A stretch of DNA of 64,000 bases from a virus. Below, one piece after another: positions 6,356 to 23,817 of the stretch. A model generated the notes under the pieces. It was not told the origin of the DNA and ran no database searches. It was given only the letters and a program-made list of their open reading frames with translations. The stretch lies in the IMG/VR virus record IMGVR_UViG_3300020045_010174, positions 678-64,677 of that record. One strand, 5' to 3'. The first letter of the stretch is position 1. Each line of letters opens with the position of its first letter. The position numbers and the translations under genes were made by a program.

Positions 6356-6486
6356 TATATCAGATGATAGTACCGAGAGTTCGCGAATCTAATGGTATAC
6401 AAACACCTACAGGATTAAAAACCATACATTTCAGATGGACTAGCGATGGTCCAGATGAGGATGTGTGGTAGAGGTAAATATGAAAT

Positions 6487-6759
6487 GTGATAAATGTAGA
6501 AACTATGGCACTTGGAAATGCGATGAATGTAGATCTAACCAAGATATGCCATATTATAGAGGAGACGAGGATTGGTTTGATGAATAAAAATTTAAGTAAA
6601 GAAACATGTACAATATGTGGAGAAAAAATCGGCAACGAAGAATCCACATCACACAGATACTTCGGAGTTAAACACGTTAAGTGTCTCGACCAGGGAATCA
6701 AACAGGCGAAATTGGATATTATAGAGTTAGATAAAGAAATAAAGGAGTTAGAGAAATGA
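6487..6759 (+). CDS. hypothetical small Cys-containing protein
   Basis: ORF with 'CTICGEK...HVKC'; overlaps the next ORF by 4 nt (ATGA coupling). Confidence 0.45.
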   Translation: MINVETMALGNAMNVDLTKICHIIEETRIGLMNKNLSKETCTICGEKIGNEESTSHRYFGVKHVKCLDQGIKQAKLDIIELDKEIKELEK

Positions 6760-7034
6760 ATCTTAGAGTAAGAATGTGGATCTTTCCTATGTATAAGGAT
6801 CCATTCCCGTATGAAATAGTAGAGCCAGATGGAAAACAATATCTCCCAGCACTCCCAACCGAGGATGATCTGGTCGATGATGCACATAAAGCAGCTCGCG
6901 TATTGAATTTGTCGTGTATGCTACAATATATCGGTGAACCAATTGATGTTTATATCCAGGGAGTTAAGCAACCCGATGCAAAATTGAGTAAGGTTGGAAT
7001 GAAAGATGGTCTCTGGTACTTTGAAACGGAGTAA
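6756..7034 (+). CDS. hypothetical protein (92 aa)
   Basis: ORF in operon context. Confidence 0.45.
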   Translation: MNLRVRMWIFPMYKDPFPYEIVEPDGKQYLPALPTEDDLVDDAHKAARVLNLSCMLQYIGEPIDVYIQGVKQPDAKLSKVGMKDGLWYFETE

Positions 7035-7036
7035 TA

Positions 7037-7510
7037 ATGAAGCAAAATGATGGTGGCTTTTTAGTAACAGACCTTCCAAAGGACGTGTACAGGTTTTTGA
7101 GAGACAATCACAAGTGTGTTGGGTGCGGAAAATGTTGTCATTGTTACCCAATCGTGATCATGCCTCAAGATATTAAGCGAGCAGCATGTGCTTTGGGTCT
7201 ATCACCCCGGGATTTTAAGAAAGAATATACGATGCCATACCCCGGAGATGCGAGATTAAGCACGTTTAAGAAGGCCGCACCGTGTGTTTTCCTCGACGAA
7301 AATAATAAATGTAAAATTTATGCAGCCAGACCGGACGTTTGTAAGAACTATCCCCTTATGAAAGGCGCAAGAATCCCCCGTGAATGTCAAACATTGCTCA
7401 ATTTGTTTAGCGAATTGGTTGATATCAACGGTCAAGTAAGTAATTTGTCAGTGATTGAGGCACAAAAAAAGAGATTAATGATGGCTACTGAGCCAAAAGG
7501 AGAGTTATGA
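7037..7510 (+). CDS. YkgJ/UPF0153-like CxxCxxCC zinc/iron-chelating domain protein
   Basis: 'CVGCGKCCHCYP...YAARPDVCKNYP' matches the CxxCxxCC putative Fe-S/zinc-chelating domain pattern. Confidence 0.55.
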   Translation: MKQNDGGFLVTDLPKDVYRFLRDNHKCVGCGKCCHCYPIVIMPQDIKRAACALGLSPRDFKKEYTMPYPGDARLSTFKKAAPCVFLDENNKCKIYAARPDVCKNYPLMKGARIPRECQTLLNLFSELVDINGQVSNLSVIEAQKKRLMMATEPKGEL

Positions 7511-7971
7511 ATATAATATTTGAGTTCAAAGACGAGACAAGAATAGAATTTGGTGGTATAAAACTAAATAAAATCAATGAAAGAACATCAATTCATGCCG
7601 AGATCGATGCATGTTTGAGTGATCCCACCCTAGAAAGAATGTATTTGATTGCTGAAGGCAACAGGTTGTGGTAATATGTGGATCCCCGAGAACCTAATTA
7701 GATACAGAATACTGGGTAAAGACCGCATAGAACCATGTAAATGTGGTCATTATCATGTCTCGAAGGTATATATTTTGCCCGAATTAACCACAGAATCCAT
7801 ATGCGACTTAGTAATTGCGGTATGTGATGAGCTAGATAATGAGCCAACAAGATGATATTTGGGCAGTAAAAGGTGGGGGAACCCACCGAAAATGCCTTAA
7901 ATTGGGCATATTCGTATCGAATTGTACGATAAATAACGATTGTAAGGCATGTATTGCCAAGGAGAAAGTAG

Positions 7972-8781
7972 ATGATAAAACGACAATTGGGGGCACTAAA
8001 AGACCCAAAAGACGACAGAGATTATAAGATTAGGGCTTATTTAACAGTATCAAATGAGCAGTTGCCGGTAAGATTGGATGTATCCGGTATAATGATGCCG
8101 GTAAGAGACCAGGGTAATGAGGGAAGCTGTGTATCTTTTGCAGCTACCGGGTTCAAGGAATTCCAGGAAAAGGACTTTAAGACCTATCTAGCACCCAGAT
8201 TCTTAACCGATAGAATACAGAAGATATATGATGGCGGCTCCTATCCCCGCGATGCAATGGAAGTATTGCTTAAAGAGGGGGTTTCTCCTGAGATGTGTCA
8301 GCCATATACTGCGAAAACGCCCACCGATCCATGTCCGAGATCCGCCGATCTTGCCAAAGAGAATAAGATTAAGGCATACGCAAGGATATATAATATAGAT
8401 GAGATGAAGAAATGCCTGTATGAAAACGGAGCATTCCTGGCATCATTCACAGTTACTGATAACTGGTTCAAACCCGTGGGTGGATTAATCATCCCAGAGG
8501 GTAAAGTTGTCGGTGCCCACGCAGTATGTGTAGTTGGATATGATGATGTCGCCCAGGTTCTTAAGTTCAGGAACTCTTGGGGAAGAGATTGGGGCCAAGA
8601 TGGCTACGGATATCTACCCTATGTTAGCGTCACCCAGCATTTATTGGATGCATGGTCGAGTGTAGATGTCCCAGAAGCGGAGGAAGAGAAGGTTAACCCA
8701 GAACCTGCTCCGAAAAATAAAACACTCTGGCAGGCATTGATAGAACTTCTTCTCAGATTACTTGGGAGGAAGAATGTGTGA
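7972..8781 (+). CDS. papain-like (C1 family) cysteine peptidase
   Basis: 'QGNEGSCVSFAATG' (catalytic Cys motif QGxCGSCWAF-like), 'GAHAVCVVGYDD' (His motif) and 'KFRNSWGRDWGQDGY' (NSWG..WG..GY motif). Confidence 0.7.
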   Translation: MIKRQLGALKDPKDDRDYKIRAYLTVSNEQLPVRLDVSGIMMPVRDQGNEGSCVSFAATGFKEFQEKDFKTYLAPRFLTDRIQKIYDGGSYPRDAMEVLLKEGVSPEMCQPYTAKTPTDPCPRSADLAKENKIKAYARIYNIDEMKKCLYENGAFLASFTVTDNWFKPVGGLIIPEGKVVGAHAVCVVGYDDVAQVLKFRNSWGRDWGQDGYGYLPYVSVTQHLLDAWSSVDVPEAEEEKVNPEPAPKNKTLWQALIELLLRLLGRKNV

Positions 8782-9239
8782 GCGAGCCTGGGGAACCTGC
8801 TCACATTGTGGATGGTCTGGATTGATCGATTTGGAAAGATGTGGATGCCCGGATTGTGGGTATGGTGTGAGTATTGGAGGAAAATGAATGAAGTATTAGA
8901 ATTAATGCATAAAGCGTTGGAAGATTATACAGCTTCGGGAATGTACTTAAGCCGGAAATTCCATAAACAGTATGGTAAAATTGGATTGCGAACATATGGA
9001 CAAACTCATTTAAAACAGGAGGGTATCAATGCTACCTGATTCGGTTATATTCATGGGACTGTTGATATTTTTTTACATGATATATCCCATCACACAATCC
9101 ATTGATCTTAGAAGATTATGGAGAGAGTATGGCCTGAGAAGTATATTAGCCGCCGAGATAGGTGCGATTGTATATCTACTCGTTAAAATCGTGGTGTTGC
9201 TGTATGGAGTTTGAAGGATGGGGAGAGAGATGTGGGAAT

Positions 9240-9850
9240 TGCGGGAAGATAGTAATTAAATTCGCGTATCCAACATCTTTAAATTCTCCGATAGAATGTA
9301 TGTATTGCTACGTCGAGAGAATGAATCGGGTATAATTTTTTTTTTATAAATTTTTTCGGGGTACCCCATACGGTATTCCTAATACGAATTGTATTTCTTT
9401 TTTAGAATAATTATCGATTAGCTTTAGCTATAATTTTTTACACCTACATACCCCTCGAATGACCCATGCCATCACTTTGGTTTTATTTTTTTTCTGTTAT
9501 AATGTTTACGCTTAACGATTAATCGTATTTAAGAATCACTCCATAAACTATTGTGTAAAGATTTAATGCTCATGCGTTTTTTTCGTGTCAATGCATAACG
9601 ATTCATATAAAACATGTTTACACTTTGCGGTTTAATTCAGCCTACATATAACGATAAATCGTATTTTATTTAATTCTCCTCTTATCGTTTTTTCCAATCG
9701 TGTCATTGCATCACGTTTAATCAAACGCATATATGTATTTAAATAATTTACACAGACATACATTTAAAACGAAATACCGATATGCAGCGACGTTATATAA
9801 ATACACAACCGCAACGATACATTTATATACTCATAAACTAATGTTTGATT
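9240..9850. repeat. AT-rich non-coding region with imperfect direct repeats / iteron-like repeats built around a palindromic core
   Basis: No ORFs. Repeats include 'ttacgcttaacgattaatcgtatttaagaa' (9506-9535), 'acatataacgataaatcgtattttatttaa' (9644-9673), 'aacgattcatataaaac' (9598) and repeated 'ttacacNNacatac' (9435, 9616, 9745). A perfect palindrome 'ggggtacccc' sits at ~9357. Confidence 0.5.
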
Positions 9851-10392
9851 GTCAGTAAGTAACACTGATAGAGTGAAGCAACACTCATCATCATGATGAG
9901 CATTGCTCACAGATGCAAACGAACAGAGTAAACGGACATGCACAAATAGCGCAAGCTATGCATGAGCATGCACCGATATAACCGGATATAAGACCGTTAG
10001 AGATGTCATCAAATACGGTTAAGTATCCAAATGAATGCCTGATGAGGCGTGGCCAATAACCACGATTAGTTACGTATAGGGCACGATATAGGCCAAACTG
10101 AGCAGTAGCTCTAACCAAGGAATTATAGGGGCTCTACACAGTATCTTCCCCGAAAGGAACTATATACTATTAGGGATCGGGGTAGGTCACCTGAGTGGAC
10201 TCGTGTTAATACAGAAATTCATCGGGGTTAGATGTCATAAGCTGAAATTAGGGGATACTTATTAGTACCCTCTTAAGACGAAACTTCATTTACTACTGCC
10301 CAGTAAGTTAAAATACCACATGGAACAAATGCGGTTAAAGTCCGCAGTCCCCGTATCATATAGGGGACATGTTCCCCAATGAGGTATAGAAA

Positions 10393-11070
10393 ATGAGCGA
10401 AAATTTCAAACTACAGAGCGTAGCAGAACCGAAGAATAGAAACACAGTATTGAGAATAGCGGGAGCTATAAACCACGCTGAGAAGGTACTTGAGAATTTA
10501 CGTACCATGGATGCGGGCGATGCAAAAGACCTACTCCACGTAGTACGTGAAGAATCCAAAGTAATGACCTCTCAATCCCAGCTACTCGCATTACTGGCAG
10601 GCGGGGAAATCCCAGATAAGGCCATGAAAGCCATCGAAGAAGCACAGCCGATAAAATACGTCGAGGCTCGTGCTATGGGCGGGATTCCCGTTAGTCGAGC
10701 AGATGATACGGGCAAGATTGACGATAAGGGTAACCGGATATTTAAGATAGTCTGGTTCATGCCACAAGCAGTTAAAGCCAAAAAGGAATTGGGCGCAAAA
10801 GGACTGCTTAACGTCAAAGACGGCGAGTTCTCATCCAATAAAGAAGGAACTGAAAAAGTATTGAATGAGCTTGACCTTCAGAGAGGAAAAATCAACTTCC
10901 ACAAAACGGCCATAACCCAGTATGTAAAGGCAGCCAAAATCATCAAGCAGGAAGAACTTAAGGCACTACATGACGCCAAGAAAACAGCAAGCATAAACAT
11001 ATATGCACTCGGTCAGGCAATGCTTAAAGACACGCCACATATCCAGGTAGAAAAACCATTGACAGCTTAA
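10393..11070 (+). CDS. hypothetical protein (225 aa), first gene after the 1.1 kb non-coding region
   Basis: Long ORF; SD-like 'gaggtat' upstream. Confidence 0.5.
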   Translation: MSENFKLQSVAEPKNRNTVLRIAGAINHAEKVLENLRTMDAGDAKDLLHVVREESKVMTSQSQLLALLAGGEIPDKAMKAIEEAQPIKYVEARAMGGIPVSRADDTGKIDDKGNRIFKIVWFMPQAVKAKKELGAKGLLNVKDGEFSSNKEGTEKVLNELDLQRGKINFHKTAITQYVKAAKIIKQEELKALHDAKKTASINIYALGQAMLKDTPHIQVEKPLTA

Positions 11071-11100
11071 GAGATGTGAATTTTTTATATCTCTTATGAG

Positions 11101-11550
11101 GTGATTACTATGAATGACCCCTTAACATGCAACCGAAATAACCCAAAGTGGACATACGGAAGCTCAAAATCTGATGCAGTCCCCTATAGTCCATACGAAG
11201 TATCAAATATGAGGCAGGCAAATCCATGTAAGTTTTGCAAATCTCGTAAATCATGCAGAAATGTTACGGGTCATCATACACCCCATAAAAAGGTCAAGTA
11301 TGTGGAAATACCCAAGTCCGGTAACGTACCAGCTCCCATCGTAAAAGGTGAACTCATCAACGGACGGAAGCAGACGGGTCTTAAACCGGTGCTCACCTTC
11401 AAACCTGACGGTACACCAAAAATCATCATCGAAAAACCCTTCTATCCAAGATTATCCGATTCACACGTCAAAGTTCACTCACCAAAGACCCCACAAGTAC
11501 CAATATCCCCAAAACCCCAAGATGCAAAACACAGAAAATTCACAGAGTGA
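11101..11550 (+). CDS. basic Pro/Lys-rich hypothetical protein with Cys cluster
   Basis: 'CKFCKSRKSCRNVTGHH'; SD 'gaggtga' upstream. Confidence 0.45.
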   Translation: MITMNDPLTCNRNNPKWTYGSSKSDAVPYSPYEVSNMRQANPCKFCKSRKSCRNVTGHHTPHKKVKYVEIPKSGNVPAPIVKGELINGRKQTGLKPVLTFKPDGTPKIIIEKPFYPRLSDSHVKVHSPKTPQVPISPKPQDAKHRKFTE

Positions 11551-12528
11551 TACACATGATCATAGATAACAAACATGTTACCATCATCCATATGGATGAC
11601 ATACAGCTAATGCAAATATTTGAATTTCTCCCATCCGGTGAGGTCGAATATTCCGAAGCATACGTATCCGAAAAACAAGGAATCAAAGTAAGTGAATCAC
11701 AACCATATTAAGCGAGTGATGATCATGCAATTTCACAGAATAATTACCGAAAGAAACGATAACACCATGGAATCAAGAATGAACAATGCAGCGAGGGAAG
11801 GTTTTAAACTTCACCAATTCGAAGTTGTCGTTACAGGTGAACGATTAACACCAACATTTTGCGCACTAATGATAAAGGAAGTACCATGAAAACTCCAATA
11901 TGCAGCGACTGCATAAATTTACAAACCTGCGATGAACCCTTCATCTATTCATTTCTTGAATGTATAAACTTCGAATACATCCCCTACATAAAGGAGTAAT
12001 ACTATGAGTATGAAAAGAATTTCAACAAGAATCCAAAGCACAGTAATGGAAAAACTGGGAATCCGTCCAAAGTCCATCAAGCAAATACTCAATGATGAGT
12101 ATGTAAAATCTTTACAGGTGTGTTGATTATGCAACGAAACGATTTTCTTTACATGATCATCCATCTTCCACTTACATTACTATGCATCTACTTAATCTAT
12201 GATTTACTATCCTCTCCCATTATCCATCCATGAGCATATAAAATACTCCAGATAGTATCCTTTATATACTCACGTTTTAATCATTACTGAGCAACTTCAA
12301 AAATAAACTATCTAAAACATTTTAGACCACACACTTAAAAGAATTTTATACTTCACAAATTCCTTTGACATGACGGGTCTAAATTCTTTAAGATAGTCAC
12401 GAATGATTCACCCGACATCATTTCCAAGGCAAAATATGAGGTGAATTTATTTTTAAAAACCAGCGGTTTTACCCATATTTTCCTAAATTCTGTCTTAAAC
12501 TCTATCCTCTACTCTTTTTCTTTTATGC

Positions 12529-12598
12529 AAAAAAAATAAATAGAAGAAAGAAAAAAAGAATAGAAAAAATAAAAGTATAAACCCTTAAGTTTAAGACA
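12529..12598. repeat. ~70 bp A-rich intergenic element, copy 1 (second copy at 59632-59702)
   Basis: 'aaaaaataaatagaagaaagaaaaaaaga...gtataaa...ttaagtttaagaca' is shared with 59632-59702 (about 85% identity by eye). Confidence 0.6.
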
Positions 12599-12853
12599 CT
12601 TTCTTTAGACAGTGTGGTCTAAACTTTTAAGTGAAGTTCAAGGATGCGTTATAAGCAATTAAAATTATCGTTTCCTCCAAAGATATAGGGGTATATTCGA
12701 TCTCTTCTCCTGGATAGAATTTACCCTTATGCTGATGATCTGGGACTAAGCCACATGTCCCACTCCTAAACCACGGTTAATTCCCTGCGAAGTCTTAGGG
12801 AAAGTGAGTCCGTTTACGGGCATGAAACCCTACCGTGGAAGCATTTATAAAAG

Positions 12854-13063
12854 GTGATACTTATGGAACTAATAAAAGGAACGAAAGTATATTATGATGG
12901 CTCTTTGATAGGTCGCAACAGTGGAATGGGCGGCTCAAAGGGAACTGGTGTTATTACAAAGACACATTTAACAGATGATTGGGTGGAAGTAACACTCGAC
13001 AAAACCGGATACAAAATAGCAATGTCAAAAGAGCGTATGAAAATTGCAACCAATACAAAGTAA
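12854..13063 (+). CDS. small hypothetical protein, distant relative of the tandem mini-gene family
   Basis: 69 aa; G-x-x-V/Y...W-V-E-V pattern; SD 'aaggtga' upstream. Confidence 0.4.
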   Translation: MILMELIKGTKVYYDGSLIGRNSGMGGSKGTGVITKTHLTDDWVEVTLDKTGYKIAMSKERMKIATNTK

Positions 13064-13374
13064 TGGAGTTGATACAATGCCAAACCAATCTGAAACATTT
13101 ATACTCGACCGTGAAAACGGAGCTATGATCTGGATAGATATAGACATTGAAGTACATAAAAAGAAAAAGGAAAATGAAGGTTAATAACATGAAACTAATA
13201 TCAGCAAAGCCTGTGAAACAATTTCGACCATTCGACATAAGAATAGAAACAGTAGCAGAAGCAAGATCCTTGTGGCTCGAATTGGAAAACGATATGATTG
13301 AAGCAGAAGCACCAAGTCAAAAGTTAGCAGAAATGATACGCATCGAACTCAGTAATCAAGAGTTATTATAAGAG

Positions 13375-13671
13375 GTGATAATTATGCCAAAACTAAGATA
13401 CAAACGCAGTAAAGATACATCAAGAAAGGAAGCAAAAATAAAAGAATCAATTGCTTCCCAAGAAAGAAGAGAACAACGGACTGTCGAATCCATCAAATCA
13501 AAACCAATGGGGACACAGTATCCTAAAGGATATAAAACCTGCAGGCCAGACCTTGCAGTCCGGGAAACATCAGACAACAGTATTGAAAAACTCAAGGAAG
13601 AACTGCGGAAACTTCCCTCAATCATAACCGAAAACAAACCAAGCGACCCATCATCTCCCCGCTTCAAGTGA
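13375..13671 (+). CDS. basic hypothetical protein
   Basis: ORF with Lys/Arg-rich N-terminus; 'gaggtga' SD. Confidence 0.4.
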   Translation: MIIMPKLRYKRSKDTSRKEAKIKESIASQERREQRTVESIKSKPMGTQYPKGYKTCRPDLAVRETSDNSIEKLKEELRKLPSIITENKPSDPSSPRFK

Positions 13672-13970
13672 TGAGTATGCCACTCGCCGAGAAATACAAT
13701 AAAGATAAATTAAATACACAGATTGAGTTTCCATTTTGGGAAATTAAAGATGCATATAAACAGGATAAGATGCGGGTTAAGTATCAAGATAACATCAGAG
13801 CTATCCAAAGAAATTTTAGAGCGGATCTTATTCAAACATATCTACCTGGAAATAGAAAGGCAGAAAAGGTTTTTTTTATCGCTTGGAAAACTGCACATAA
13901 CCGCGGATATGAAGAGGTAGAAAAATGCTTCAAAGAACTTGCAGAACTGGTGACATCAGACGACGATTAG
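13668..13970 (+). CDS. hypothetical protein (100 aa)
   Basis: ORF whose start overlaps the upstream stop. Confidence 0.4.
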   Translation: MMSMPLAEKYNKDKLNTQIEFPFWEIKDAYKQDKMRVKYQDNIRAIQRNFRADLIQTYLPGNRKAEKVFFIAWKTAHNRGYEEVEKCFKELAELVTSDDD

Positions 13971-14560
13971 AACTCAGTAATCCAGAATCATTTCCCACAT
14001 CGGAAGAGCTTGAAGTGAGAAGAGAATTCGCATCTGATGTCATGCTCATGGGTTTGAATATAAGTATGATCTTTATGATACTGGGTGCAGTAATAGTAGC
14101 ATTCGTATCGACCCGATATATGGGGTATACTGGATTCAACATTGCTTTCTTTGGCACACTCTTAGATGTATTGTGTGGTGCATTGATTGCATATCATTTC
14201 GGAAGTAGACAGAGGATGATTGTATGAAAATAGAACATGAAATAAAAGAAAAAAAATTCGAACCGTTTAAGATAGCAATTGAAACGGAAGAAGAAGCGAT
14301 GACTTTCTGGGTGAGGTTTCTTCAAGGTGATATCTCATTTGCAAATGGGTTCGGAGATCCTATAATGAGGGCGGCATCAGCGACACTTGAAACAAGAAGC
14401 ATCTTCAATAAGCTATCTGAAGAGATGGAAAGGCAAGGTATAACGAGAAGTAAAATTATTTCCCGGGTGAAAAAATGAACATCAATATAAAAATGTATGG
14501 GTTACTATCCGTAGTGACCTTAATAACAGCAGCGGCGATAGCAGTATTTGCGGAGAATAT

Positions 14561-15031
14561 GTGAAAAGAAATATAAAAGAATCTGTCTGGAAACAAATAG
14601 ATAAGAGGGGAGAAGATGATTGTTGGGAATGGATGGGATATAAAAATAAAGATGGATATGGTAGGATTAGTATTGGCCGTAAACTTTATTCCACACATAG
14701 GTTGGTATATGAATTAATGAAAGGTAATATATTACATAATGAGGTCATAATGCATTTGTGTAATAATCCATCCTGTTGCAATCCAAAGCATCTTAAGTGT
14801 GGAACCCAAGAAGATAATATATATCAAATGTATGAAGAGGGTAGAGATAGACATATGATTCAAGAAGGGGAACTTAATAATAATAGTAAATTATCAAATG
14901 AAAAAGTTATTGAAATTAGAAAATTATATTCTTCTGGAAATCATTCTCAAAGACAGATTGCAAATCAATATAATATAAATCAGGCACTGGTTTCTGGAAT
15001 TATAAATAAAAAATTATGGAAACATATATAA
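14561..15031 (+). CDS. HNH homing endonuclease with C-terminal HTH
   Basis: 'HRLVYELMKGNILHNEVIMHLCNNPSCCNPKHLKCGTQEDN' HNH motif; C-terminal 'RQIANQYNINQALVSGI' HTH. Confidence 0.75.
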   Translation: MKRNIKESVWKQIDKRGEDDCWEWMGYKNKDGYGRISIGRKLYSTHRLVYELMKGNILHNEVIMHLCNNPSCCNPKHLKCGTQEDNIYQMYEEGRDRHMIQEGELNNNSKLSNEKVIEIRKLYSSGNHSQRQIANQYNINQALVSGIINKKLWKHI

Positions 15032-15035
15032 GGAA

Positions 15036-15272
15036 GTGAATGAAATGGTTTCAGACGCAGGACTAATAGCAATAGGTGCAGGAATAGCAGTAGGACTAAC
15101 AGGAATCGGGGCTGGTTTAGCCGAGGCTACTATCGGTGCAGTAGCTGTGAGAGCGATGAAAGAAGATAGTAAATTCTTAGGAAAAGGATTACTCATGACA
15201 GTGATCCCCGAATCAATAGCCATCTTTGGCTTAGTAGTAGCCCTCATCTTACTGTTCGTATTCAACACATGA
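15036..15272 (+). CDS. A/V-type ATP synthase proteolipid (subunit c/K)-like two-helix membrane protein
   Basis: 78 aa. Helix 1 is 'GAGIAVGLTGIGAGLAEATIGAVAV'; helix 2 is 'IPESIAIFGLVVALILLFV' with a conserved carboxylate in a PE(S/T)xxI(Y/F)GLV context, as in archaeal AtpK / V-type c subunits. Confidence 0.6.
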   Translation: MNEMVSDAGLIAIGAGIAVGLTGIGAGLAEATIGAVAVRAMKEDSKFLGKGLLMTVIPESIAIFGLVVALILLFVFNT

Positions 15273-15282
15273 GGGGACAGAT

Positions 15283-15570
15283 ATGGATAATAAATTTGCA
15301 GAGTTTGTAAGTGCTTGTATTTTGGAGAAGTTAAATGAGATAACTTTCTCAGTAAGACATGCTGACTTGATTAAAATTCAAGAGAGTATATACTCAAAGA
15401 GAATGTATGCTCCGGGTTATAGAGTCTTCGGTGGATTTTTCTGCCCTTGTTGTAAGAAGAATTTAACTAAAGAGGAAGTGGATAATAAATATATCCTAAA
15501 ATGTACATGCGGATATGAGTATGCAGGATCAACCTATCCAGATGATGATGATGAATCATATAGATTCTAG
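15283..15570 (+). CDS. zinc-ribbon hypothetical protein with acidic tail
   Basis: 'FCPCCKKN...KCTCGYEY'. Confidence 0.45.
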   Translation: MDNKFAEFVSACILEKLNEITFSVRHADLIKIQESIYSKRMYAPGYRVFGGFFCPCCKKNLTKEEVDNKYILKCTCGYEYAGSTYPDDDDESYRF

Positions 15571-16147
15571 GGGTTAATTATGAATGAATATAAACTTATT
15601 TCTCCTCACGGACATACAGTAATTGTGATGGGTGATATGTTTACACGTGATCAAATTTGGGTGGGTGATCTTTGGCAGGCGAGAGTACCAACCGATTGGT
15701 TGGTTATAGTTACCAGGGGTGTTGATAAGAAATGAACGATGAAGAACGAACAGAAGAAATTGATAGACTATATTCAGCTCTTCGGGTAGAACTCGATGAG
15801 ATCGAAAGAGTTTCCAATGAAGCCATGGAGAAAAGGAAATCTAATCTGATCACCAAGTTTAATAAGCGTATGGTAAAACTTATAAAGCTATGGGAAAAAT
15901 TAGATAAGCAGGAAGAAGTAATCAAAACCAAAGCAACCCTATATAAACTCAACCACGAATCCAGTGAACTCGACGAACAGATAAACGAACTCTCACAATA
16001 AACCGGGGGATGGTATGTTCGAATCAAGAATCGAAAGAGTGTTAGCCCTTAAATGTGGAATCGAAATGAAACAAATCGAAAAGTATTACATCAAATCAAA
16101 TTGCATTACTGTACTCAGATTCAGTAAATAAAATCAGGGAGGTCATC

Positions 16148-16501
16148 ATGTCAGAAACAGAATTAATAATGAACACATTGATAGCACTATCTGATAAGAT
16201 CGGGATAGCTGCAACGGAAATCTCCCGTATCTTCATCGAGGCACAACCCAAAATAGCGATGGTGAATTTAACATTAGCGGGAATCATTATAATATTAACC
16301 AGTATATCAATGGCGATTGTAGCATACATAGAATATAATATCAATCATTCCGATGATTGTCTATCTGCAATACTGGTTGCTGGAATAGTAACATTGGTTA
16401 TCTCTATATTCATAGCAGCAATTATTGCACCAAATCTATATGCTATCGTAGCTCCAGAATACATTGGTCTCAAAGATATGATCAGTACAATAAGAGGATA
16501 A
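16148..16501 (+). CDS. small multi-TM membrane protein (holin-like candidate)
   Basis: Strongly hydrophobic 117-aa ORF; followed by another small TM ORF (~16513-16695). Confidence 0.4.
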   Translation: MSETELIMNTLIALSDKIGIAATEISRIFIEAQPKIAMVNLTLAGIIIILTSISMAIVAYIEYNINHSDDCLSAILVAGIVTLVISIFIAAIIAPNLYAIVAPEYIGLKDMISTIRG

Positions 16502-17004
16502 TAGGTGAGAGCATGCTCGGACAATTAATATTACTTTATGTAATTATATTTTTAGCATTCGCATTTCACCAAAATAAAACGAATGATATTATATCAACAT
16601 TCGTCACTGTTGCGTTAAAATTTTTTATTGTAACAGCCTGTATAATGTTGATACTCATCGTCGGATCTATAATCATTGCGCTATGGAATGTATAAAATAA
16701 ACGGAGGTCGCCATGTATATACTGGACATCATTAAAAACTACATCAGTAATTTCTTTAAGGGGATAGAAGAAAAACATGGTGGCCTCAGCAGAGAGTCAA
16801 CCGAAGAATATAAAATAAAGAAACCATTCAAATGCACATCAAAAAAGATCAGAGTTCCAGAAAAGATTATCAAAGTAAAGGAAAGAAAACCCACAGTAAT
16901 AAAACATAAGAAATTAAACCTTGAGTTTTATCCAATACATGAAGCCCCAAAAGCAAGGGTGATGAAGCAACAAGACTCGTGTCAGCTGAAGTATAATTAA
17001 GGAA

Positions 17005-17376
17005 GTGATGATCATGAAATATCCCGAAGCTTTAAACTTAATAGAAGGTTATCTTATATCAACCGGCATTCGAAAGTATTGTACTGAAGTATGTCATGGT
17101 GATTGCTGTAGGACATGTGACTCACATCAATGTAATACACAAAGAAACATTGCATGTTCAACATACGTATGTGATAAGATAAAGGATAAGAGGATACACA
17201 TCATACTGTGGATGCAATCACTCAGACACATATCAAATACAATAGGTAGATCGGCCTTCTGTGTATATGATGGACTGACAGATGAGGAATATAAAAAATT
17301 AAATGAGTCTGAGTTACCCCGTGGATTTGTAATAGACCTATTAAATCTTTTAGAAAAACCCAGGATAAAACAATAA
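17005..17376 (+). CDS. Cys-rich hypothetical protein
   Basis: 'CTEVCHGDCCRTCDSHQCNTQRNIACSTYVCDK'. Confidence 0.45.
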   Translation: MMIMKYPEALNLIEGYLISTGIRKYCTEVCHGDCCRTCDSHQCNTQRNIACSTYVCDKIKDKRIHIILWMQSLRHISNTIGRSAFCVYDGLTDEEYKKLNESELPRGFVIDLLNLLEKPRIKQ

Positions 17377-17383
17377 AATTAAT

Positions 17384-17477
17384 ACTCCGGTATCTCAGTC
17401 AAGTATGTATGCATCATACTGCAGAAGAGAGCTGGTGTTAAACCAGAGTGTCGTGGGTTCAAATCCCACCCGGAGTT
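17384..17477 (+). tRNA. tRNA-like gene (unusually long, ~94 nt; probable intron or long variable arm; isotype undetermined)
   Basis: 7-bp acceptor pairing 'actccgg' / 'ccggagt' flanks a canonical T-arm 'gtggg-ttcaaat-cccac'. A perfect 5-bp/7-nt-loop hairpin 'gtatg-tatgcat-catac' sits inside. I could not fold a canonical D-arm by eye. Confidence 0.5.
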
Positions 17478-17735
17478 TTGGCCAAATAAACGGCCATATT
17501 AAAACGGAAGTATTATATGTAAGTAGTTATGAATAAGGCTGCCCGGATTGGGCGAGAGAGGCGATCGGATTATGAATAGGATAAGAGGTTGTCGTAAATA
17601 AAGATAGAAGATTTAACTATTTATATCAAAACAAAACCATATAAAAGACATACCGAGATGAACCACTTCTCTGTTGAGTAACATTGGATCAGGATCATAA
17701 TTAAAAGTGGCTGTGTATGTTAGTCATAATCTCGT

Positions 17736-17827
17736 GCTTCGGTAATCTAATGGCGAGGTGCTAGTCTAGGTAGGAGTGGGTGGCCTATCGGAAACCTGTT
17801 AAGTGAGTTCGATTCTCACCCGGAGCA
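17736..17827 (+). tRNA. tRNA gene (~92 nt; long variable arm or intron; isotype undetermined)
   Basis: Acceptor 'gcttcgg' / 'ccggagc' (one U-G), D-arm 'atct-aatggcg-aggt', T-arm 'gtgag-ttcgatt-ctcac', discriminator a. Confidence 0.55.
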
Positions 17828-17868
17828 TTTGCCAGATTCGGCAATAGTATTTCAGAGGTGAAATAAAT

Positions 17869-18993
17869 ATGAACAATAAATTGTGGATAGTCTTGATCGC
17901 CCTTGTTGGGATCGGATTGTATGCACTGCCAGCGACCATGTCGCTCTTCGCGGGACAACATTCGTTCGTTAACATCGACGCAACAGGCAATCAGATCGAC
18001 TGTGTGAAATGTCATGGCGACGTAAAAGCAGAATTAAATTCTGGTGGAGTCAATGCCAAGACAGGAACAGTAGGCCCACACGCTTCGTTCAAATGCGAAT
18101 ACTGTCACAGAATAGAAGCCGGTGCTTCAAGCGGTGACAACGCCTACGCAATAGTCACATATACAAACGGAACAATTCCGACTGTATCTGGGATCAGTAA
18201 TATGAGAACCATTGCTATTAGCATGGCTGACTTTGAGGAAGAGAACTTCCCAGCAACCATAACAAATGATGTGACAACCATAACACAGGTTGAAACAGCA
18301 TGGGGTAATACATTCGCTAAGGCATATGGTGGATCCGCTCAGGCTGCAATCAGTCCTCAGGCAATAGGAACTGAACTGGACACAACAGTATTAACAATAT
18401 ATAATGAGTACGAGAAGCCTTTGTATTCAGCAGGCGCACCCATAGATACCTCCGCTAGAAAAACCGAGGGTATGATCCTTAATAAGAATGGTGCTACCAA
18501 CTGGACGAAGAGTTCAAGGTACTGGACACCATCGTTGTATGGTGTAGGTTCCAGAGTAATTAATCCAGGCTCAGAGTATCACGCCGCATCATTGGTATCA
18601 TGTCTTGAATGCCACGGTGGTTCAGAACCACTCGGTCATTACAGCAGAGTACTTGATGGTGAATCAACCGCCTCATGTGAACAGTGTCACTATGGTTCTA
18701 CAAATAGATGGACAGAACTTAGTGCTGGAGGATTCGGTATACTCGGTGGAAAAGATACTGGAGCAACAGAAGCCCACAAGGATTTCGTCACAACCAATGA
18801 TGGAATGACAAGGCAGAAAGATGGTATAAGTAATGGTGCATGTGTTGCATGTCATACTCACGTAGCAGTAGACATCACATACAACAAACCAGATACATAT
18901 ACATTCAATGCAGCAAACACAATTGGAAATGGTGACTGGACAGTCGGCCCATATACAGCAGCAGGAAACGTAACAAGTAACAGCAGCCCGTAA
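17869..18993 (+). CDS. secreted multiheme c-type cytochrome (5 CxxCH)
   Basis: N-terminal TM/signal 'MNNKLWIVLIALVGIGLYALPATMSLFAGQHSF'. Heme motifs CVKCH, CEYCH, CLECH, CEQCH, CVACH. Confidence 0.8.
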   Translation: MNNKLWIVLIALVGIGLYALPATMSLFAGQHSFVNIDATGNQIDCVKCHGDVKAELNSGGVNAKTGTVGPHASFKCEYCHRIEAGASSGDNAYAIVTYTNGTIPTVSGISNMRTIAISMADFEEENFPATITNDVTTITQVETAWGNTFAKAYGGSAQAAISPQAIGTELDTTVLTIYNEYEKPLYSAGAPIDTSARKTEGMILNKNGATNWTKSSRYWTPSLYGVGSRVINPGSEYHAASLVSCLECHGGSEPLGHYSRVLDGESTASCEQCHYGSTNRWTELSAGGFGILGGKDTGATEAHKDFVTTNDGMTRQKDGISNGACVACHTHVAVDITYNKPDTYTFNAANTIGNGDWTVGPYTAAGNVTSNSSP

Positions 18994-19000
18994 AGAGAAC

Positions 19001-19423
19001 GTGGGGGTCAAATCCCCACACTTTCTATCACGAGGAGATGAAATGAAATATTTATTAATAGTTATATTTATATTACTCGTGCCTCAAAACACAATGGCCT
19101 TAAAACAACCATTGGAGTATGGAATAAATCAATGTGAATTGATAGCAAAAGATTATCAAAACATATATGGTGGTTCATTAGTCTGGATACAACCACTCAA
19201 AGACAATGGTGCGTATGATCTCGGTGAATACAATGCCCATATAATCAATCGTGTATATATATATAATGAGGGAATTATTTATATTGATTATCAATCTGGA
19301 TTCAGCGGGCATAATTTATCAGATGTCGGTAATTGGTATGAAGTATATAGTGGGAACAATGCTTTCATGATTTTTGAATTATATAAAGAAAGACCACCCT
19401 TCCCTATGTGGTGGCATTACTAA
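19001..19423 (+). CDS. secreted hypothetical protein
   Basis: Signal peptide 'MKYLLIVIFILLVPQNTMA'. Confidence 0.45.
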   Translation: MGVKSPHFLSRGDEMKYLLIVIFILLVPQNTMALKQPLEYGINQCELIAKDYQNIYGGSLVWIQPLKDNGAYDLGEYNAHIINRVYIYNEGIIYIDYQSGFSGHNLSDVGNWYEVYSGNNAFMIFELYKERPPFPMWWHY

Positions 19424-19437
19424 CATCAGAGGTGACC

Positions 19438-19893
19438 ATGAGACTATATCTTTTTATACTATTACTGTGCCTCATTCCACTCGCAAATGCGGATGATGGT
19501 GTATGTATATTCTGTCATAAAAATATAGATAGCTTCATGTTCCAATCAGCATGTAAGGATTGTCATGATACAGAAGATCCCACACATGCCATCAACAGAT
19601 GTATCGGTTGTCATCGAGCAACCAATGTAGATTCCTATCATCGACTACACAACAACACACCATGTTCAACCTGCCATGCTGATGCGGAAAAACCAAAGGG
19701 AATAACCCTGTCAGCATGTGCTTCATGTCATAAGAATACTGTGGTTAATATCCACTTAAATAAAACGATGACTCCAGAAACATCGTTACCTATTATTAAA
19801 CCAGCACTCATAGACACATGGAAAAAATATACAGTAAGTTCCATAATACAATTCTTCTATAACGTATACAGTAAAGAAATAAAGGTGATATAA
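19438..19893 (+). CDS. secreted pentaheme c-type cytochrome
   Basis: ATG preceded by SD 'gaggtga'. Signal 'MRLYLFILLLCLIPLANA'. Heme motifs CIFCH, CKDCH, CIGCH, CSTCH, CASCH within ~120 aa. Confidence 0.8.
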   Translation: MRLYLFILLLCLIPLANADDGVCIFCHKNIDSFMFQSACKDCHDTEDPTHAINRCIGCHRATNVDSYHRLHNNTPCSTCHADAEKPKGITLSACASCHKNTVVNIHLNKTMTPETSLPIIKPALIDTWKKYTVSSIIQFFYNVYSKEIKVI

Positions 19894-19894
19894 A

Positions 19895-20311
19895 ATGGCA
19901 AACAAACTAATGATATTATTCGGATTGACTCTCATGATTGTGGCAGTAACAAGTTTACAATCTGCTGCAAATGAAACCAAACCGGGTCTGAGCTTAGAGA
20001 TTACAGTGAAGGATGATGTCGTTACCAATGTAAGTATGAAGCAGGTTGAACTTCCATTCTTCTATAAACAAACCAGCGGCACAGTTGACTTCCCGGATAT
20101 AAGTGTCAACGCAAAACCTGGTCAGCTTGAAGCAAAGCCAATAACATACTGGGCATCTTCTCCATATTCAGGGGACGGTATCTATACAATGACCCTATCA
20201 TTTGATGGAACTATACCGAAGGTAGATGACTTCCTAATACTTCCCATCAGAATAACAAATGACAGAGGCCACATCATCTATAAACAAACCGGGTTTTATA
20301 CCTGGAGATAA
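19895..20311 (+). CDS. secreted hypothetical protein
   Basis: Signal peptide 'MANKLMILFGLTLMIVAVTSLQSAANE'. Confidence 0.45.
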   Translation: MANKLMILFGLTLMIVAVTSLQSAANETKPGLSLEITVKDDVVTNVSMKQVELPFFYKQTSGTVDFPDISVNAKPGQLEAKPITYWASSPYSGDGIYTMTLSFDGTIPKVDDFLILPIRITNDRGHIIYKQTGFYTWR

Positions 20312-20628
20312 ACATGTATGATAGAATAGAACCTATCATGATGTTTGTATTCATACTCATGATGTTTATATCAGTGGGTATGGTGATGATTGCATCATAT
20401 AATTTATTAGTGGGTGTAGGTAATCTCCCCTGCAACGAACCATTGATAGTATTATATATCAATCCACCCTGAGTAAAGATAACTAAAGTTATATTCGGAG
20501 GTAAGTATGAAAAAGTCTACGGAGATAATATTAAGTCTTGTGTTAGGATTAATCGCAATGGGTGTGGGAATATACATGAGTGGATCACCATGTACATGAG
20601 ATTCATATATGAAGAAATGAGGTGACTT

Positions 20629-20985
20629 ATGAAAGCGTTGGTAGTAATGGTAGCATTGATAGGTATATTGTTTTGGAATCTACCCGCTACCAACTCATCA
20701 TTTAAAGGACAGCATTCCTTCTACACCGAAGTAGATTGTACCAAGTGTCACTTAGAACAAACCAATTATCTAACCCATACATCAACACTCAACCATACAA
20801 TGACCTGTAAGATATGTCACCCGCAAGATAGAATGTCATCTCACTCAGCAAGGAGAGGATCATGTTATGTTTGTCACTATACTATTCCTTCTGTTGTTCC
20901 TTCTACTGTGCTTGTGGATGCGGGGGTCACCGAAACTCTTACAGTTAATAGCGACCCAATACAAATTCAAACCAGCCCAACTTGA
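20629..20985 (+). CDS. small triheme c-type cytochrome, paralog of the 17869 N-terminus
   Basis: 'LPATNSSFKGQHSF' parallels 'LPATMSLFAGQHSF'. Heme motifs CTKCH, CKICH, CYVCH. Confidence 0.7.
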   Translation: MKALVVMVALIGILFWNLPATNSSFKGQHSFYTEVDCTKCHLEQTNYLTHTSTLNHTMTCKICHPQDRMSSHSARRGSCYVCHYTIPSVVPSTVLVDAGVTETLTVNSDPIQIQTSPT

Positions 20986-21025
20986 AAAGGATACTCGCAA
21001 AGAGGATTGGATCATCTTAATAATA

Positions 21026-21505
21026 ATGATCACCCTCATTATAATACTGGGTGTTAAACTAATAACACTGCAGGTTATAGTATCCGATAGTATGAAGCCC
21101 GAATTCCAACGTGGTGATATCATAGTATCCCAATCAATTGATCTCAATGTTTCAGTTGGGGACATCATCACATTCAATACAATCAGTAGTCAATACGCAG
21201 TCACACATAGAGTTATAGAAATCAGAGATGATAGAATCATAACCCGCGGTGATGCTAATCCCTGGAACGATGACTACTACACCACAAACAAAGATGTAAT
21301 ATTCAAAGCTATAAATCTTTCCGGCCCCATCGTAATTAAAAACCTCGGTGGATTCTTCATAACAGATTACAGTAAGCAGGGAATGATTTATAAGTTTGGA
21401 GACCAGTACACCTTCATGCAAAATCTATCAGCCACAATTAAAGTGTGGGGTAGATTGATTACATTAATAGCAATAGTAATATACATTCTTTCTATGAAGA
21501 GGTGA
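21026..21505 (+). CDS. signal peptidase I, ER/archaeal (Sec11-like) type
   Basis: Box B 'SDSMKPEFQRGDIIV', box C 'GDIITF', box D with His 'THRVIE', box E 'GDANPWNDD'. The six-frame ORF begins at 20867 but would overlap the cytochrome by 118 nt, so the internal ATG at 21026 is preferred. Confidence 0.65.
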   Translation: MITLIIILGVKLITLQVIVSDSMKPEFQRGDIIVSQSIDLNVSVGDIITFNTISSQYAVTHRVIEIRDDRIITRGDANPWNDDYYTTNKDVIFKAINLSGPIVIKNLGGFFITDYSKQGMIYKFGDQYTFMQNLSATIKVWGRLITLIAIVIYILSMKR

Positions 21506-21508
21506 GTT

Positions 21509-22255
21509 ATGAAACTACAAAGTATCTGTTCAATAATACTTGGAGGCATCATAGGTATAGCAGGCACAGTATCCCTTGTGATTGATATCCTTACCATGCT
21601 TGAACCAATGAAACTATTAATAGATATGGTAGTCATGATTATGGGATTCCTCACCGCATATCAGGGACTCACAGCACATCTCTTCGAGACGATGCTTAAG
21701 AATAAGATGGAAGCAGAGTGGGATTATAAAATGAAACCACTCATTGATCTCATAACAATTACCGCTGGTAAAGTAAATAGTCTTGAGGAAAATGCCCTTG
21801 AAACAAATCTAAAGGTATCTCATACATTAGATCAGTTGAATAATAATAGGATTGAGAACATTGATATCATACCGGGTGCATCATTCAAGTTTATTATTAA
21901 GTCAATGATGCTCTTGACATTTACATTCTCCGCACTGGTATTCGTTAGTGAATATCCCCTAGGAATAATACATTACTTCCTTACTGTATTATTTGTAGCG
22001 TGGTTCGCACTCATAACTTCCGAATATAAGTTGTGGGGAAATACAAATGCAATGGTGATAGGTGTCATGCCTGTCCTGATAGTACCAACACTGGCAATGC
22101 TACTCGATACATTAATAGGAATCAATAACATGATTGGTCTAATGTTTGTATGTCTCTTTATATATACTTATAGTTATTATACATGGGCATCATATACAAC
22201 AACAGGTTATCAACTCATCAGCCTGAAACCAATCAAGCAATTACTTCGGAGGTAA
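21509..22255 (+). CDS. polytopic membrane protein, hypothetical
   Basis: 248 aa with multiple hydrophobic helices. Confidence 0.5.
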   Translation: MKLQSICSIILGGIIGIAGTVSLVIDILTMLEPMKLLIDMVVMIMGFLTAYQGLTAHLFETMLKNKMEAEWDYKMKPLIDLITITAGKVNSLEENALETNLKVSHTLDQLNNNRIENIDIIPGASFKFIIKSMMLLTFTFSALVFVSEYPLGIIHYFLTVLFVAWFALITSEYKLWGNTNAMVIGVMPVLIVPTLAMLLDTLIGINNMIGLMFVCLFIYTYSYYTWASYTTTGYQLISLKPIKQLLRR

Positions 22256-22617
22256 TATGATGGAAGATATACTGCAAAGAAGTATTGAGGAAAGAAATCA
22301 TCACACAACTTATCATGTAGTTCATTTGGGTGGGGGTAAGTATGTAATCCTAAATAGATTTTCACCACACTTGAAACCAGGTTGGTGATAACAAACCATT
22401 CCCCGATGTCAAGATTGGGGATGTGGTATAGCGATATAGATATCGTGTAGTAAAATTCGGAGGTAAAAATATGAGCTTAGTAAAACATCTATGGATGGAC
22501 ATCGTTCCACAAACAACACATAAAGCAAGAAAATATATACCATCGTATGAAACAAGACTCAAGAAAGCAGAGGCTAATGTGGCCAGACGAATGGCCAAGG
22601 TTAAGTAAATAGATTTG

Positions 22618-22681
22618 ATGGTGTCAGGTAGACGCGCTGAAACTTTGAGATTACCTGGGTTCAATTCCCGGGCACCATCAT
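22618..22681 (+). other. tRNA-like fragment / truncated tRNA (acceptor + T-arm, no canonical D/anticodon arms)
   Basis: 'atggtgt'...'ctggg-ttcaatt-cccgg'-'gcaccat'-c. Only 28 nt lie between the acceptor and the T-arm, too short for a full tRNA; the internal hairpin is ggta...tacc. Confidence 0.3.
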
Positions 22682-22816
22682 TGTGTGGGAGCCTTGGATT
22701 TCAAATATCCGGGCTCTATTAAAAAGATACGCTCGAGTATATAGGAGTGGTCGCGTGAATCTAATTTTTATGTCCCGCCTTAATAGCAGTCCGCGATGAC
22801 TGCCGTATCTTTTGAA

Positions 22817-22899
22817 GCGAGTATTGCTGAGTGGTCAAAGGCGCGAGACTCAAGATCTCGTCTAGTAGTAGTTCAGGAGTTCGAATCTCCTTACTCGCA
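22817..22899 (+). tRNA. tRNA-Leu(CAA), type II with long variable arm
   Basis: Acceptor 'gcgagta' / 'tactcgc', D-arm 'gct-gagtggtcaaa-ggc', anticodon arm 'cgaga-ctCAAga-tctcg', variable 'tctagtagtagttc', T-arm 'aggag-ttcgaat-ctcct', discriminator a. Confidence 0.65.
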
Positions 22900-22912
22900 T
22901 AGAGGTGATTAC

Positions 22913-23119
22913 ATGGTTAAAGTTGGAGAGGTGTGGGTAAAAGATCCGTGTAAGGAATGGTATTGGGGAGATCATTGTGGTGAACCTGTAATCGTCATGG
23001 GAGTAACGTCCCGTGAAATTTATTATAGATATGTATATATAGATTATAATTATCATTTGGTGGGTATGTTGATGCGAGATGATTTTTTATCTTTCTATAA
23101 ATTGATTAAATCTGTTTAG
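22913..23119 (+). CDS. tandem mini-gene family member A1 (~68 aa, M-V-K-V-G-E-V-W ... Y-R-Y ... KSV)
   Basis: ATG directly after tRNA-Leu, with 'agaggtga' SD; paralogous to the next four ORFs. Confidence 0.6.
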   Translation: MVKVGEVWVKDPCKEWYWGDHCGEPVIVMGVTSREIYYRYVYIDYNYHLVGMLMRDDFLSFYKLIKSV

Positions 23120-23138
23120 ATTATGGAGTGATAATCAT

Positions 23139-23354
23139 ATGGTTCTAGTTGGTCAGATCTGGATGAGAAATCCAAAGATGAAAAATTACTGGGGAGATGA
23201 CGCTGGTAAATTAGTTGTCGTTACTACTCTAACTAATAGCACAGTATATTATAGATATGTGGATTATGAATCCTATGATGAGTTTGTTCACTTCCAGGGG
23301 GCTAGAGAATTAGATGCCTTCATAAAAAGATTCGTATTATATAAAGATGTGTGA
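23139..23354 (+). CDS. tandem mini-gene family member A2
   Basis: 'MVLVGQIWMRNPKMKNYWGDDAGKLVVV...YYRYV...FVLYKDV'. Confidence 0.6.
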   Translation: MVLVGQIWMRNPKMKNYWGDDAGKLVVVTTLTNSTVYYRYVDYESYDEFVHFQGARELDAFIKRFVLYKDV

Positions 23355-23578
23355 GGTATCATATGATTGAACCCGGTCAGATTTGGATGAGAGATCCAGA
23401 GATGAAAATTTATTGGGGAGATGCGGCTGGTAAATTGGTTATCATTATTTCTATACTCGATGACAATATAAGGTATAGATATATATCTTGGTATAATGAT
23501 GAGTCAGATCACCACCACGTGGGGGAGTACAGTAGATTTTCTTTTTTAAGAAAATTTAAATTATATAAAGATGTATGA
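23351..23578 (+). CDS. tandem mini-gene family member A3
   Basis: 'MIEPGQIWMRDPEMKIYWGDAAGKLVII...RYRYI...FKLYKDV'; ATGA overlap with A2. Confidence 0.6.
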   Translation: MRYHMIEPGQIWMRDPEMKIYWGDAAGKLVIIISILDDNIRYRYISWYNDESDHHHVGEYSRFSFLRKFKLYKDV

Positions 23579-23590
23579 GGTGATAATCAT

Positions 23591-23806
23591 ATGGTTAAAG
23601 CAGGGCAGATCTGGGTAAGAGATCCCACGATGGCATATTACTGGGGGGAGGATGTTGGAAAATTAGTCATCATTACCAGTGTATCAACTCATGAGATTAA
23701 TTATAGATATGTTGAACATTCTTGGGAGGATGGATTCAAACATTATATTGGATGCAGACCATTCGATAATTTTCAAAATAGATTTAAATTATATAAAGAT
23801 ATATAA
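23591..23806 (+). CDS. tandem mini-gene family member A4
   Basis: 'MVKAGQIWVRDPTMAYYWGEDVGKLVII...NYRYV...FKLYKDI'. Confidence 0.6.
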   Translation: MVKAGQIWVRDPTMAYYWGEDVGKLVIITSVSTHEINYRYVEHSWEDGFKHYIGCRPFDNFQNRFKLYKDI

Positions 23807-23817
23807 GGTGATATGAC

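Follow-up and report, generated by a model that had tools for sequence, protein, structure and literature searches.

A stand-alone A/V-type ATP synthase subunit K of Methanoperedens origin in a tailed archaeal virus, with a candidate role in the host rotor ring

The 64,000-nucleotide (64-kb) stretch of IMG/VR virus record IMGVR_UViG_3300020045_010174 analysed here, hereafter the window, encodes on its plus strand a stand-alone subunit K (AtpK) of the A/V-type ATP synthase, which sequence comparison traces firmly to the operon-encoded K of Methanoperedens archaea, with purifying selection maintained since. Taken jointly with assembly into the host ring, the reading that this protein is a functional, anciently captured and since remodelled Methanoperedens A1AO rotor subunit K is one that we hold as evenly balanced between right and wrong. 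Across the orphan family to which the gene belongs, the parts of the protein expected to lie toward the ion site, the neighbouring subunits and the a-subunit stator appear to have been kept host-like, and the opposite face of helix 1 appears to have been rebuilt. Both this one-face remodelling and the conserved cassette in which K follows a gene for a small membrane protein seem not to have been reported before.

The open reading frame at 15036..15272 (+) is present in the window with the translation given in the earlier note, which had called a 78-aa gene there; frame and translation are thus real, and it is the start that should probably be moved, from GTG 15036 to ATG 15045, giving a K protein of 75 aa (15045..15272, +). 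GTG 15036 falls within a Shine-Dalgarno-like element read from the sequence, GGAAGTGA (15032..15039, +), 5 nt ahead of ATG 15045; every K gene compared, orphan or host, has an ATG at the equivalent place, with a GAGGT or GGAGG motif 6-9 nt upstream, and the protein database calls the same gene at 75 aa (P0001). The shorter gene is preferred on these three grounds, and residue numbering throughout is that of the 75-aa protein. An 84-aa ORF also overlaps K on the minus strand (15014..15268, -). It is an antisense shadow of this Gly/Ala-rich gene and 'matches' other loci only because K does.

Identification as an A/V-type c/K proteolipid, as first proposed from the letters of the sequence, was borne out by profile, structure and fold. 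K scored 59.9 bits (E 2.9e-16) with Pfam PF00137 (ATP-synt_C), for which the gathering cutoff is 24, covering model positions 1-60 of 60. The reading as a generic Gly-zipper hairpin fails. Its best solved-structure relative among PDB sequences was subunit K of the Thermus V/A-ATPase (6qum_O, E 6e-14, ~50% identity). A single-chain AF2 model built with 27 relatives gave a confident two-helix hairpin (pLDDT 85.8; helix 2-40, loop 41-46, helix 47-71), and Foldseek with this model returned V/A- and F-type c/K chains, led by Thermus V/A-ATPase c chains (TM ~0.75, probability 1.0). The best NCBIfam equivalog, NF004888, scored 58.5 bits, below its cutoff of 101, which counts for little because these equivalogs model other lineages. 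No PHROG family was matched by K, holins included, and none of 50,697 deposited phage genomes was matched by K in tblastn; nor did scans of viral contigs return relatives of K (as single sequence or alignment), of the neighbouring cytochrome or of the terminase.

The ion-binding carboxylate noted earlier stands in its proper context. It lies in IPESIAIFGL of helix 2, where P55-E56-S57 is invariant in all orphans and hosts compared, and ungapped alignment ranges with literature numbering equate E56 with Thermus c/E63 and with E139 of E. hirae NtpK. The other ion-site residue, E27, aligns by the same ungapped ranges with E. hirae Q110, and the roles of the ion-site residues follow those described for the Thermus enzyme (PMC7367684) as well as those generally given to their counterparts in NtpK. 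Three of the four glycines of the GxGxGxG packing motif are retained (G20-I-G22-A-G24-L-A26), the fourth being Ala as in Thermus. The Thermus thermophilus V/A-ATPase K/L subunit (c12 ring; PDB 6qum, 5gar) resembles viral K in being a single hairpin with one carboxylate per hairpin; it differs in being bacterial and operon-encoded and in carrying Gln where viral and host K have E27. In the Thermus enzyme c/E63 pairs with a-subunit arginines and c/R49 also contacts the a subunit (PMC7367684); by alignment offset, position 42 of K corresponds to c/R49.

By its gene content (TerL, portal and PolB), the window is a tailed archaeal virus of Methanoperedens. The large terminase matched PHROG_38 at E 5e-90 and a portal gene was also present, which upholds the view that K is virus-encoded; the closest deposited relative of the terminase is that of ANMV-1, a virus of ANME archaea (41% identity, E 5e-104). 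A D5-type primase-helicase, NrdD, an RNA ligase, a Cas4-like nuclease and a dCMP deaminase are encoded alongside PolB. Queried by tblastn with AtpI, AtpE, AtpC, AtpA and AtpB of Methanoperedens, the 64-kb window returned nothing at E<=1e-5, so that K is indeed stand-alone, as the earlier note had it. K is not situated between atpI and atpE but next to an HNH endonuclease gene and small viral ORFs.

With respect to layout, a minus-strand block at 1..5814 (portal, terminase and others) is followed by plus-strand coding over 5855..64000, and cumulative GC skew rises steadily. This arrangement of two unequal replichores is that of mini-Borgs, here with a terminase, and may bear on the relation between mini-Borgs and viruses. 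The possibility that the window is itself a mini-Borg was rejected: low GC and the replichore-like layout fit, but a large terminase and portal are present, and the 64 kb hold only five tandem repeats, all weak and imperfect, with none of the pervasive or perfect repeats of Borgs. A 2026 follow-up study states that canonical viral genes, terminase among them, are absent from mini-Borgs and Borgs. Among described viruses, the window can be likened by description to Mp_virus_94kb_34_22 and Mp_virus_71kb_34_13, which Shi et al. (2023) present as low-GC (~34-36%) genomes of 70-94 kb with a five-haem cytochrome and a single Cas4-like gene, both of which the window, itself part of a 74-kb contig, has. 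The lone Cas4-like gene reported there for Methanoperedens viruses of 71 kb and 94 kb and 34% GC has its counterpart in a Cas4-like PD-(D/E)XK nuclease at 44091..44819, and for this reason the window may belong to the same virus group. The accessible text of Shi et al. (2023) makes no mention of AtpK for either virus.

The nearest proteins to K are Methanoperedens V/A-type K subunits (75-85% identity), and every one whose context was examined, by three look-ups and in roughly a hundred loci drawn from scans of genomes and metagenomes, is located in a canonical H-I-K-E-C-F-A-B-D operon. Viral K and Methanoperedens operon AtpK share 81-84% of their residues, and the highest DNA identity to any sampled K was 74%. 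For orphan-orphan and orphan-host pairs, pS was 0.5-0.8 (saturated) with dN of 0.08-0.21 and dN/dS of ~0.04-0.2. The DNA identity of at most 74% and the saturated synonymous sites rule out a recent capture, and with it the near-identity to a host gene that had been entertained. Viral K has the same length, ion-site residues, loop tip and helix 2 as Methanoperedens operon AtpK; it differs in being an orphan, in changes at positions invariant in the cellular copies, and in having Ala for one Gly of GxGxGxG.

A short, host-derived gene on a metagenome contig could in principle reflect a mis-joining of host DNA to viral sequence during assembly, or be a fresh capture with no role, but either is barely credible here. 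The GC3 of K (0.35) is virus-like, close to the GC of the window (0.365) and below the 0.43-0.47 of host loci; viral genes on the same strand flank it on both sides; synteny around K is conserved in independent contigs from other samples; and its DNA identity of at most 74% to any host is coupled with purifying selection.

The matches to K fall into two classes, an operon class that is nearly invariant and a variable class to which the K of the window belongs. Every variable-class member that could be placed is a stand-alone gene amid a one-strand array of small ORFs, with genes for RNA ligase, Endo VII, an RFC-like ATPase, a PD-(D/E)XK nuclease, HNH endonucleases and multihaem cytochromes. 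The placed loci are L009 (the end of a 236-kb contig), L010/L011, L012, L089, L145, L146 and L147/L148, of which L012 is closely syntenic with the window. In a neighbour-joining (NJ) tree all orphans fell into a single long-branched clade of 28 tips (nine verified orphans, including L128 on a short contig, and 19 unverified variable-class sequences), which lies next to the operon clade of Methanoperedenaceae; bootstrap support for monophyly of the orphan clade was 85/500 (17%), too weak for a single capture event to be claimed.

Other carriers of orphan K differ in kind from the window. In L009 (the last 10 kb of JBINOC010002867.1), L145 and L146, the partner-K cassette described below follows a block of RNA ligase, RFC-like AAA ATPase and PD-(D/E)XK nuclease genes, and L145 starts with a TnpB/Cas12f-like gene; the 236-kb length of the L009 contig suggests a jumbo virus or a Borg-like carrier. 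A further orphan K, at 9989..10216 of L098 (Ga0209323_10000050, 63 kb), is host-like, retaining Q28, G36 and all four glycines of the packing motif, and has no partner. Its element is of another type and low in GC (32%), with a multicopper-oxidase-like gene near K, and its K is probably an independent, more recent capture.

To our knowledge, no viral c/K subunit has been experimentally characterised, and in that sense the statement in the earlier note that no characterised viral example was known stands. It does not stand as regards the kind of gene, as stand-alone AtpK has already been described on Methanoperedens mini-Borgs and Borgs, in long-branched clades sibling to the host (bioRxiv 10.1101/2023.08.02.551345). 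The genes described there are lone, host-similar K genes whose long branches form clades beside that of the host, and whose carriers are Methanoperedens extrachromosomal elements with low GC; in these respects the mini-Borg and Borg genes resemble that of the window. Within the accessible main text of that preprint there is no mention of AtpK in viruses, of an upstream partner or of face-specific substitutions, and in the other literature on Borgs and extrachromosomal elements that we searched we found no mention of AtpK, nor for viruses. What is first documented here is therefore orphan AtpK, a kind of gene already reported, in a virus that encodes terminase and portal.

The substitutions that set the orphans apart were located by comparing eight diverged orphans with 74 unique operon K sequences (44 close and 30 distant). 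In all eight, E27, P55-E56-S57, residues 46-73 (helix 2) and most of the loop tip are of the Methanoperedens type. Cellular K of other lineages vary at positions 47-52, 57, 59 and 65-70, and the retention of a host-type helix 2 that is variable among other lineages argues that the orphans would still be fitted to Methanoperedens-specific partners. Orphan-specific substitutions, often to Lys or Arg, occur at positions 26, 28, 32, 33, 36, 37, 39 and 40. Three of these positions, A33, G36 and E40, are invariant in 74 of 74 unique operon K, distant lineages included; the orphans have S, V, E, I or T at 33, K, R or H at 36 and K or R at 40. On a helical wheel the changed positions centre 166 degrees from the E27 face (clustering P ~0.04). 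Net charge over residues 28-47 is -1 in hosts, whereas 8/8 orphans have a charge between +1 and +3 (+2 in the K of the window), and the roughly ten substitutions separating the K of the window from host K are concentrated in residues 19-45. As the eight orphans are phylogenetically non-independent, these enrichment counts overstate the evidence.

Given the orientation of E27, we infer that the changed face of helix 1 looks into the ring lumen, near its cytoplasmic mouth. In the general architecture of the V/A-ATPase, the lumen is covered by central-stalk subunit d. A lipid cap has also been described in the ring lumen (PMC7367684). The packing motif G20-x-G22-x-G24-x-G26 carries at least one Gly-to-Ala change in 8/8 diverged orphans, against 6/44 close and 8/30 distant operon K. 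An enlargement of the ring by these changes was considered and is a weak idea because the same variants occur in cellular K and Thermus likewise has Ala at 26.

Since a ring needs many copies of K per enzyme, the virus might simply add host-equivalent subunits, with the helix-1 differences reflecting neutral drift at tolerant sites. The host-identical ion site and helix 2, the strong purifying selection overall and the existence of a host-like, partnerless orphan in L098 all agree with such a dosage effect, and it is the reading offered for mini-Borg AtpK by Shi et al. (2023). We nevertheless regard it as unlikely: the substituted sites are not tolerant, A33, G36 and E40 being invariant in 74 cellular K; the changes are directional (Lys, Arg or His at 32, 36 and 40) and limited to one face of the helix; and a dedicated partner gene is co-inherited.

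This partner is a 100-aa protein with two transmembrane (TM) segments, encoded at 13925..14227 (+) and assigned to no known family; it was recognised through tblastn synteny, alignment and AF2 modelling. A homolog is found directly upstream of K in seven loci by tblastn (L009, L010/11, L012, L089, L145, L146 and L147), that is, in every diverged orphan locus having upstream sequence, and it is absent at the host-like L098. The alignment drawn from these seven loci, in which the L089 partner was read from a frame translation, shows an N-terminal RRRxELxxPE region, a two-TM hairpin, an STRYMGxTG turn and a D/N in TM2, and the AF2 model is a confident two-TM hairpin (pLDDT 84.7). Exhaustive HMMER searching of 1.84e9 representative proteins yielded only 15 relatives, all of 75-124 aa. 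No credible relative emerged from Pfam, PDB-sequence profiles, hhalign to K or Foldseek against PDB: five of 18 family members gave sub-threshold matches to Pfam Phage_holin_3_6 (Holin-X; best E 8e-4), and one of 18 gave a likewise sub-threshold match to PF03899 ATP-synt_I (UncI) at E 0.001, the partner in the window itself not matching. The candidate identities of divergent c-subunit or AtpI fragment were unsupported, both by hhalign between the partner and K families (1% probability) and by tblastn with AtpI.

Between the partner stop and the K start there are -7 to 135 nt at the other loci (-7 to 19 nt at several) and 817 nt in the window. The intervening sequence contains an 84-aa ORF of unassigned function (14224..14478, +, from the ORF list; no Pfam or PHROG match) and, immediately upstream of K, an HNH (homing-type) endonuclease gene (14561..15031, +; PHROG HNH families, E 1.7e-32 to 5e-29). 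The region 14224..15031 looks like a free-standing homing-endonuclease insertion into the partner-K cassette, and the 84-aa ORF is probably part of it, since it is present at this place only in the window. Related HNH genes adjoin cytochrome genes in L010 and L012.

The tight linkage of the cassette in diverged elements, where several loci have the two genes spaced by -7 to 19 nt as in translational coupling, and the small size of a partner family without known homologs would also suit an autonomous complex, in which K and partner form their own ring-shaped membrane structure, ion-conducting or lipid-organising, independent of the host enzyme. We know of no precedent for such a viral complex. 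The outer, lipid- and stator-facing helix 2 stays of the Methanoperedens type though freely variable among cellular lineages, which is difficult to account for unless K makes a host-specific contact, so that we consider this reading very doubtful.

The same cassette could instead be inhibitory, with K and partner blocking central-stalk docking or leaking ions, and the host consequently shut down or depolarised in a holin-like manner, for lysis timing, or in superinfection exclusion; we judge mechanism and outcome together to be distinctly improbable. The remodelled surface, with its E40 charge reversal, lies where V/A-ATPase architecture would place the central-stalk subunit, and the partner family has the sub-threshold holin matches given above. 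Those scores are typical of TM-hairpin composition, however, and K itself matched neither a PHROG nor a holin family. Strict retention of the ion site and of the a-subunit-facing helix would be needless in a simple pore or poison, a toxic product would be costly to mini-Borgs and Borgs with orphan AtpK if those persist in their hosts, and the cassette sits amid replication and metabolic genes with no lysis genes recognised nearby. Of the roles that the earlier note had raised, the sequence evidence favours insertion into the host rotor as the more probable over an altered ion specificity or a free-standing holin function, a change of the ion site being disfavoured by the invariance of E27 and P55-E56-S57.

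The surroundings of K in the window suggest an energy-metabolism island, with multihaem cytochromes and a signal peptidase. A 374-aa multihaem c-type cytochrome with five CxxCH motifs (17869..18993, +; Pfam Cytochrome_C7 and c3) is encoded 2.6 kb downstream of K and is syntenic with K in L012 (92% identity) and L010 (46%). It is followed by a small cytochrome-c-like gene (161 aa; 19408..19893, +; weak Pfam Cytochrom_CIII and C7 matches), a homolog of which is placed directly downstream of K in L010/L011 (by tblastn, L010 10238-10687; also found in L012). Together with a 212-aa S26-type signal peptidase, which could process secreted cytochromes, these genes make up an energy and secretion island at 17869..21505.

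Several other features of the window were recorded. A tRNA-Thr(GGT) at 17735..17828, directly upstream of the 374-aa cytochrome gene, possibly contains an intron, as its 94 nt are unusually long, and a second virus tRNA, tRNA-Leu(CAA), is encoded at 22817..22899. An SPFH/Band 7 (stomatin/prohibitin-like) membrane-scaffold protein (31551..32471, Pfam 52 bits) could act on host membrane complexes. Over 32692..43547, three phiEco32-like COOH-NH2 ligase genes (starting at 32692, 39834 and 42237) alternate with two glutamine-amidotransferase-like genes (39075 and 41450), which suggests a peptide- or metabolite-modifying module.

In the mechanism that we favour, viral K would be made during infection together with its two-TM partner, insert into the host membrane and assemble into the host A_O rotor ring, either mixed with host K or as an all-viral ring running against the host a subunit (AtpI). 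Such a ring would keep normal ion binding and the a-subunit interface, and its inner surface at the cytoplasmic mouth would be altered, gaining in bulk and in basic charge, with Gly-to-Ala changes in the packing motif. The partner may serve as a ring-assembly or ring-lumen factor. The likely purpose would be that host ATP synthesis is maintained or re-tuned while virus is produced, with the multihaem cytochromes acting alongside. As one part of this whole, to which we give evenly weighted credence, viral K would work in the host A_O sector and alter the inner, cytoplasmic surface of the ring, probably with the partner.

That viral K would join the host enzyme, what the partner might do and which way any physiological effect would run are read here from conservation and gene neighbourhood, and several points weigh against them. 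Host-ring assembly is deduced from conservation alone, and host K helix 2 is likewise invariant over the same timescale, so the conservation of helix 2 in orphans could reflect ring formation itself, not contact with AtpI. Unless K is the limiting subunit, supplying it alone would not let more complete enzymes form, and the remodelled face could equally disrupt docking of central-stalk AtpC (d), making the protein inhibitory. A supportive or re-tuning role is favoured nonetheless because the ion machinery is strictly conserved, the neighbours are cytochromes, and mini-Borgs and Borgs may persist in their hosts. A role in ATP production or proton translocation has been proposed for mini-Borg AtpK by Shi et al. 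(bioRxiv 10.1101/2023.08.02.551345).

More speculatively, and in our estimation improbably, partner and K might constitute a portable two-gene module for rotor modification, common to Methanoperedens viruses and other elements, that builds an altered host ring. Under that same tentative proposal the alteration could concern the number of subunits and hence the ion-per-ATP gear ratio, a lumen that is re-lined or plugged, or a changed coupling to the central stalk. If this is true, a virus would here for the first time be seen to re-engineer the rotor of a host ATP synthase and not just to top up a subunit.

Cyanophage psbA, which encodes D1, is a virus-encoded single subunit of a host energy complex. 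Phage pmoC (cited by Shi et al. 2023) and the amoC-phages also place single subunits of host energy complexes on viruses. Like the window, these phages carry one subunit of a multi-subunit host bioenergetic machine, sustaining or steering host energy during infection; unlike the window, they involve a different complex and their genes are generally host-like, whereas viral K is remodelled on one surface and has a dedicated partner. What the window adds is an orphan K in a genuine tailed virus, old and under selection, in a cassette with a membrane protein and with one face remodelled, so that the vague label of 'auxiliary metabolic gene' can be replaced by specific hypotheses on how the ring assembles, how the central stalk docks and how the gear ratio is set. 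In bioenergetics, engineered variants of the c-ring are a classic tool, and a natural set of c-ring variants evolved by viruses would be of interest to that field. Methanoperedens archaea carry out anaerobic methane oxidation close to the thermodynamic limit, and any change in their conversion of ion gradient to ATP could alter methane turnover.
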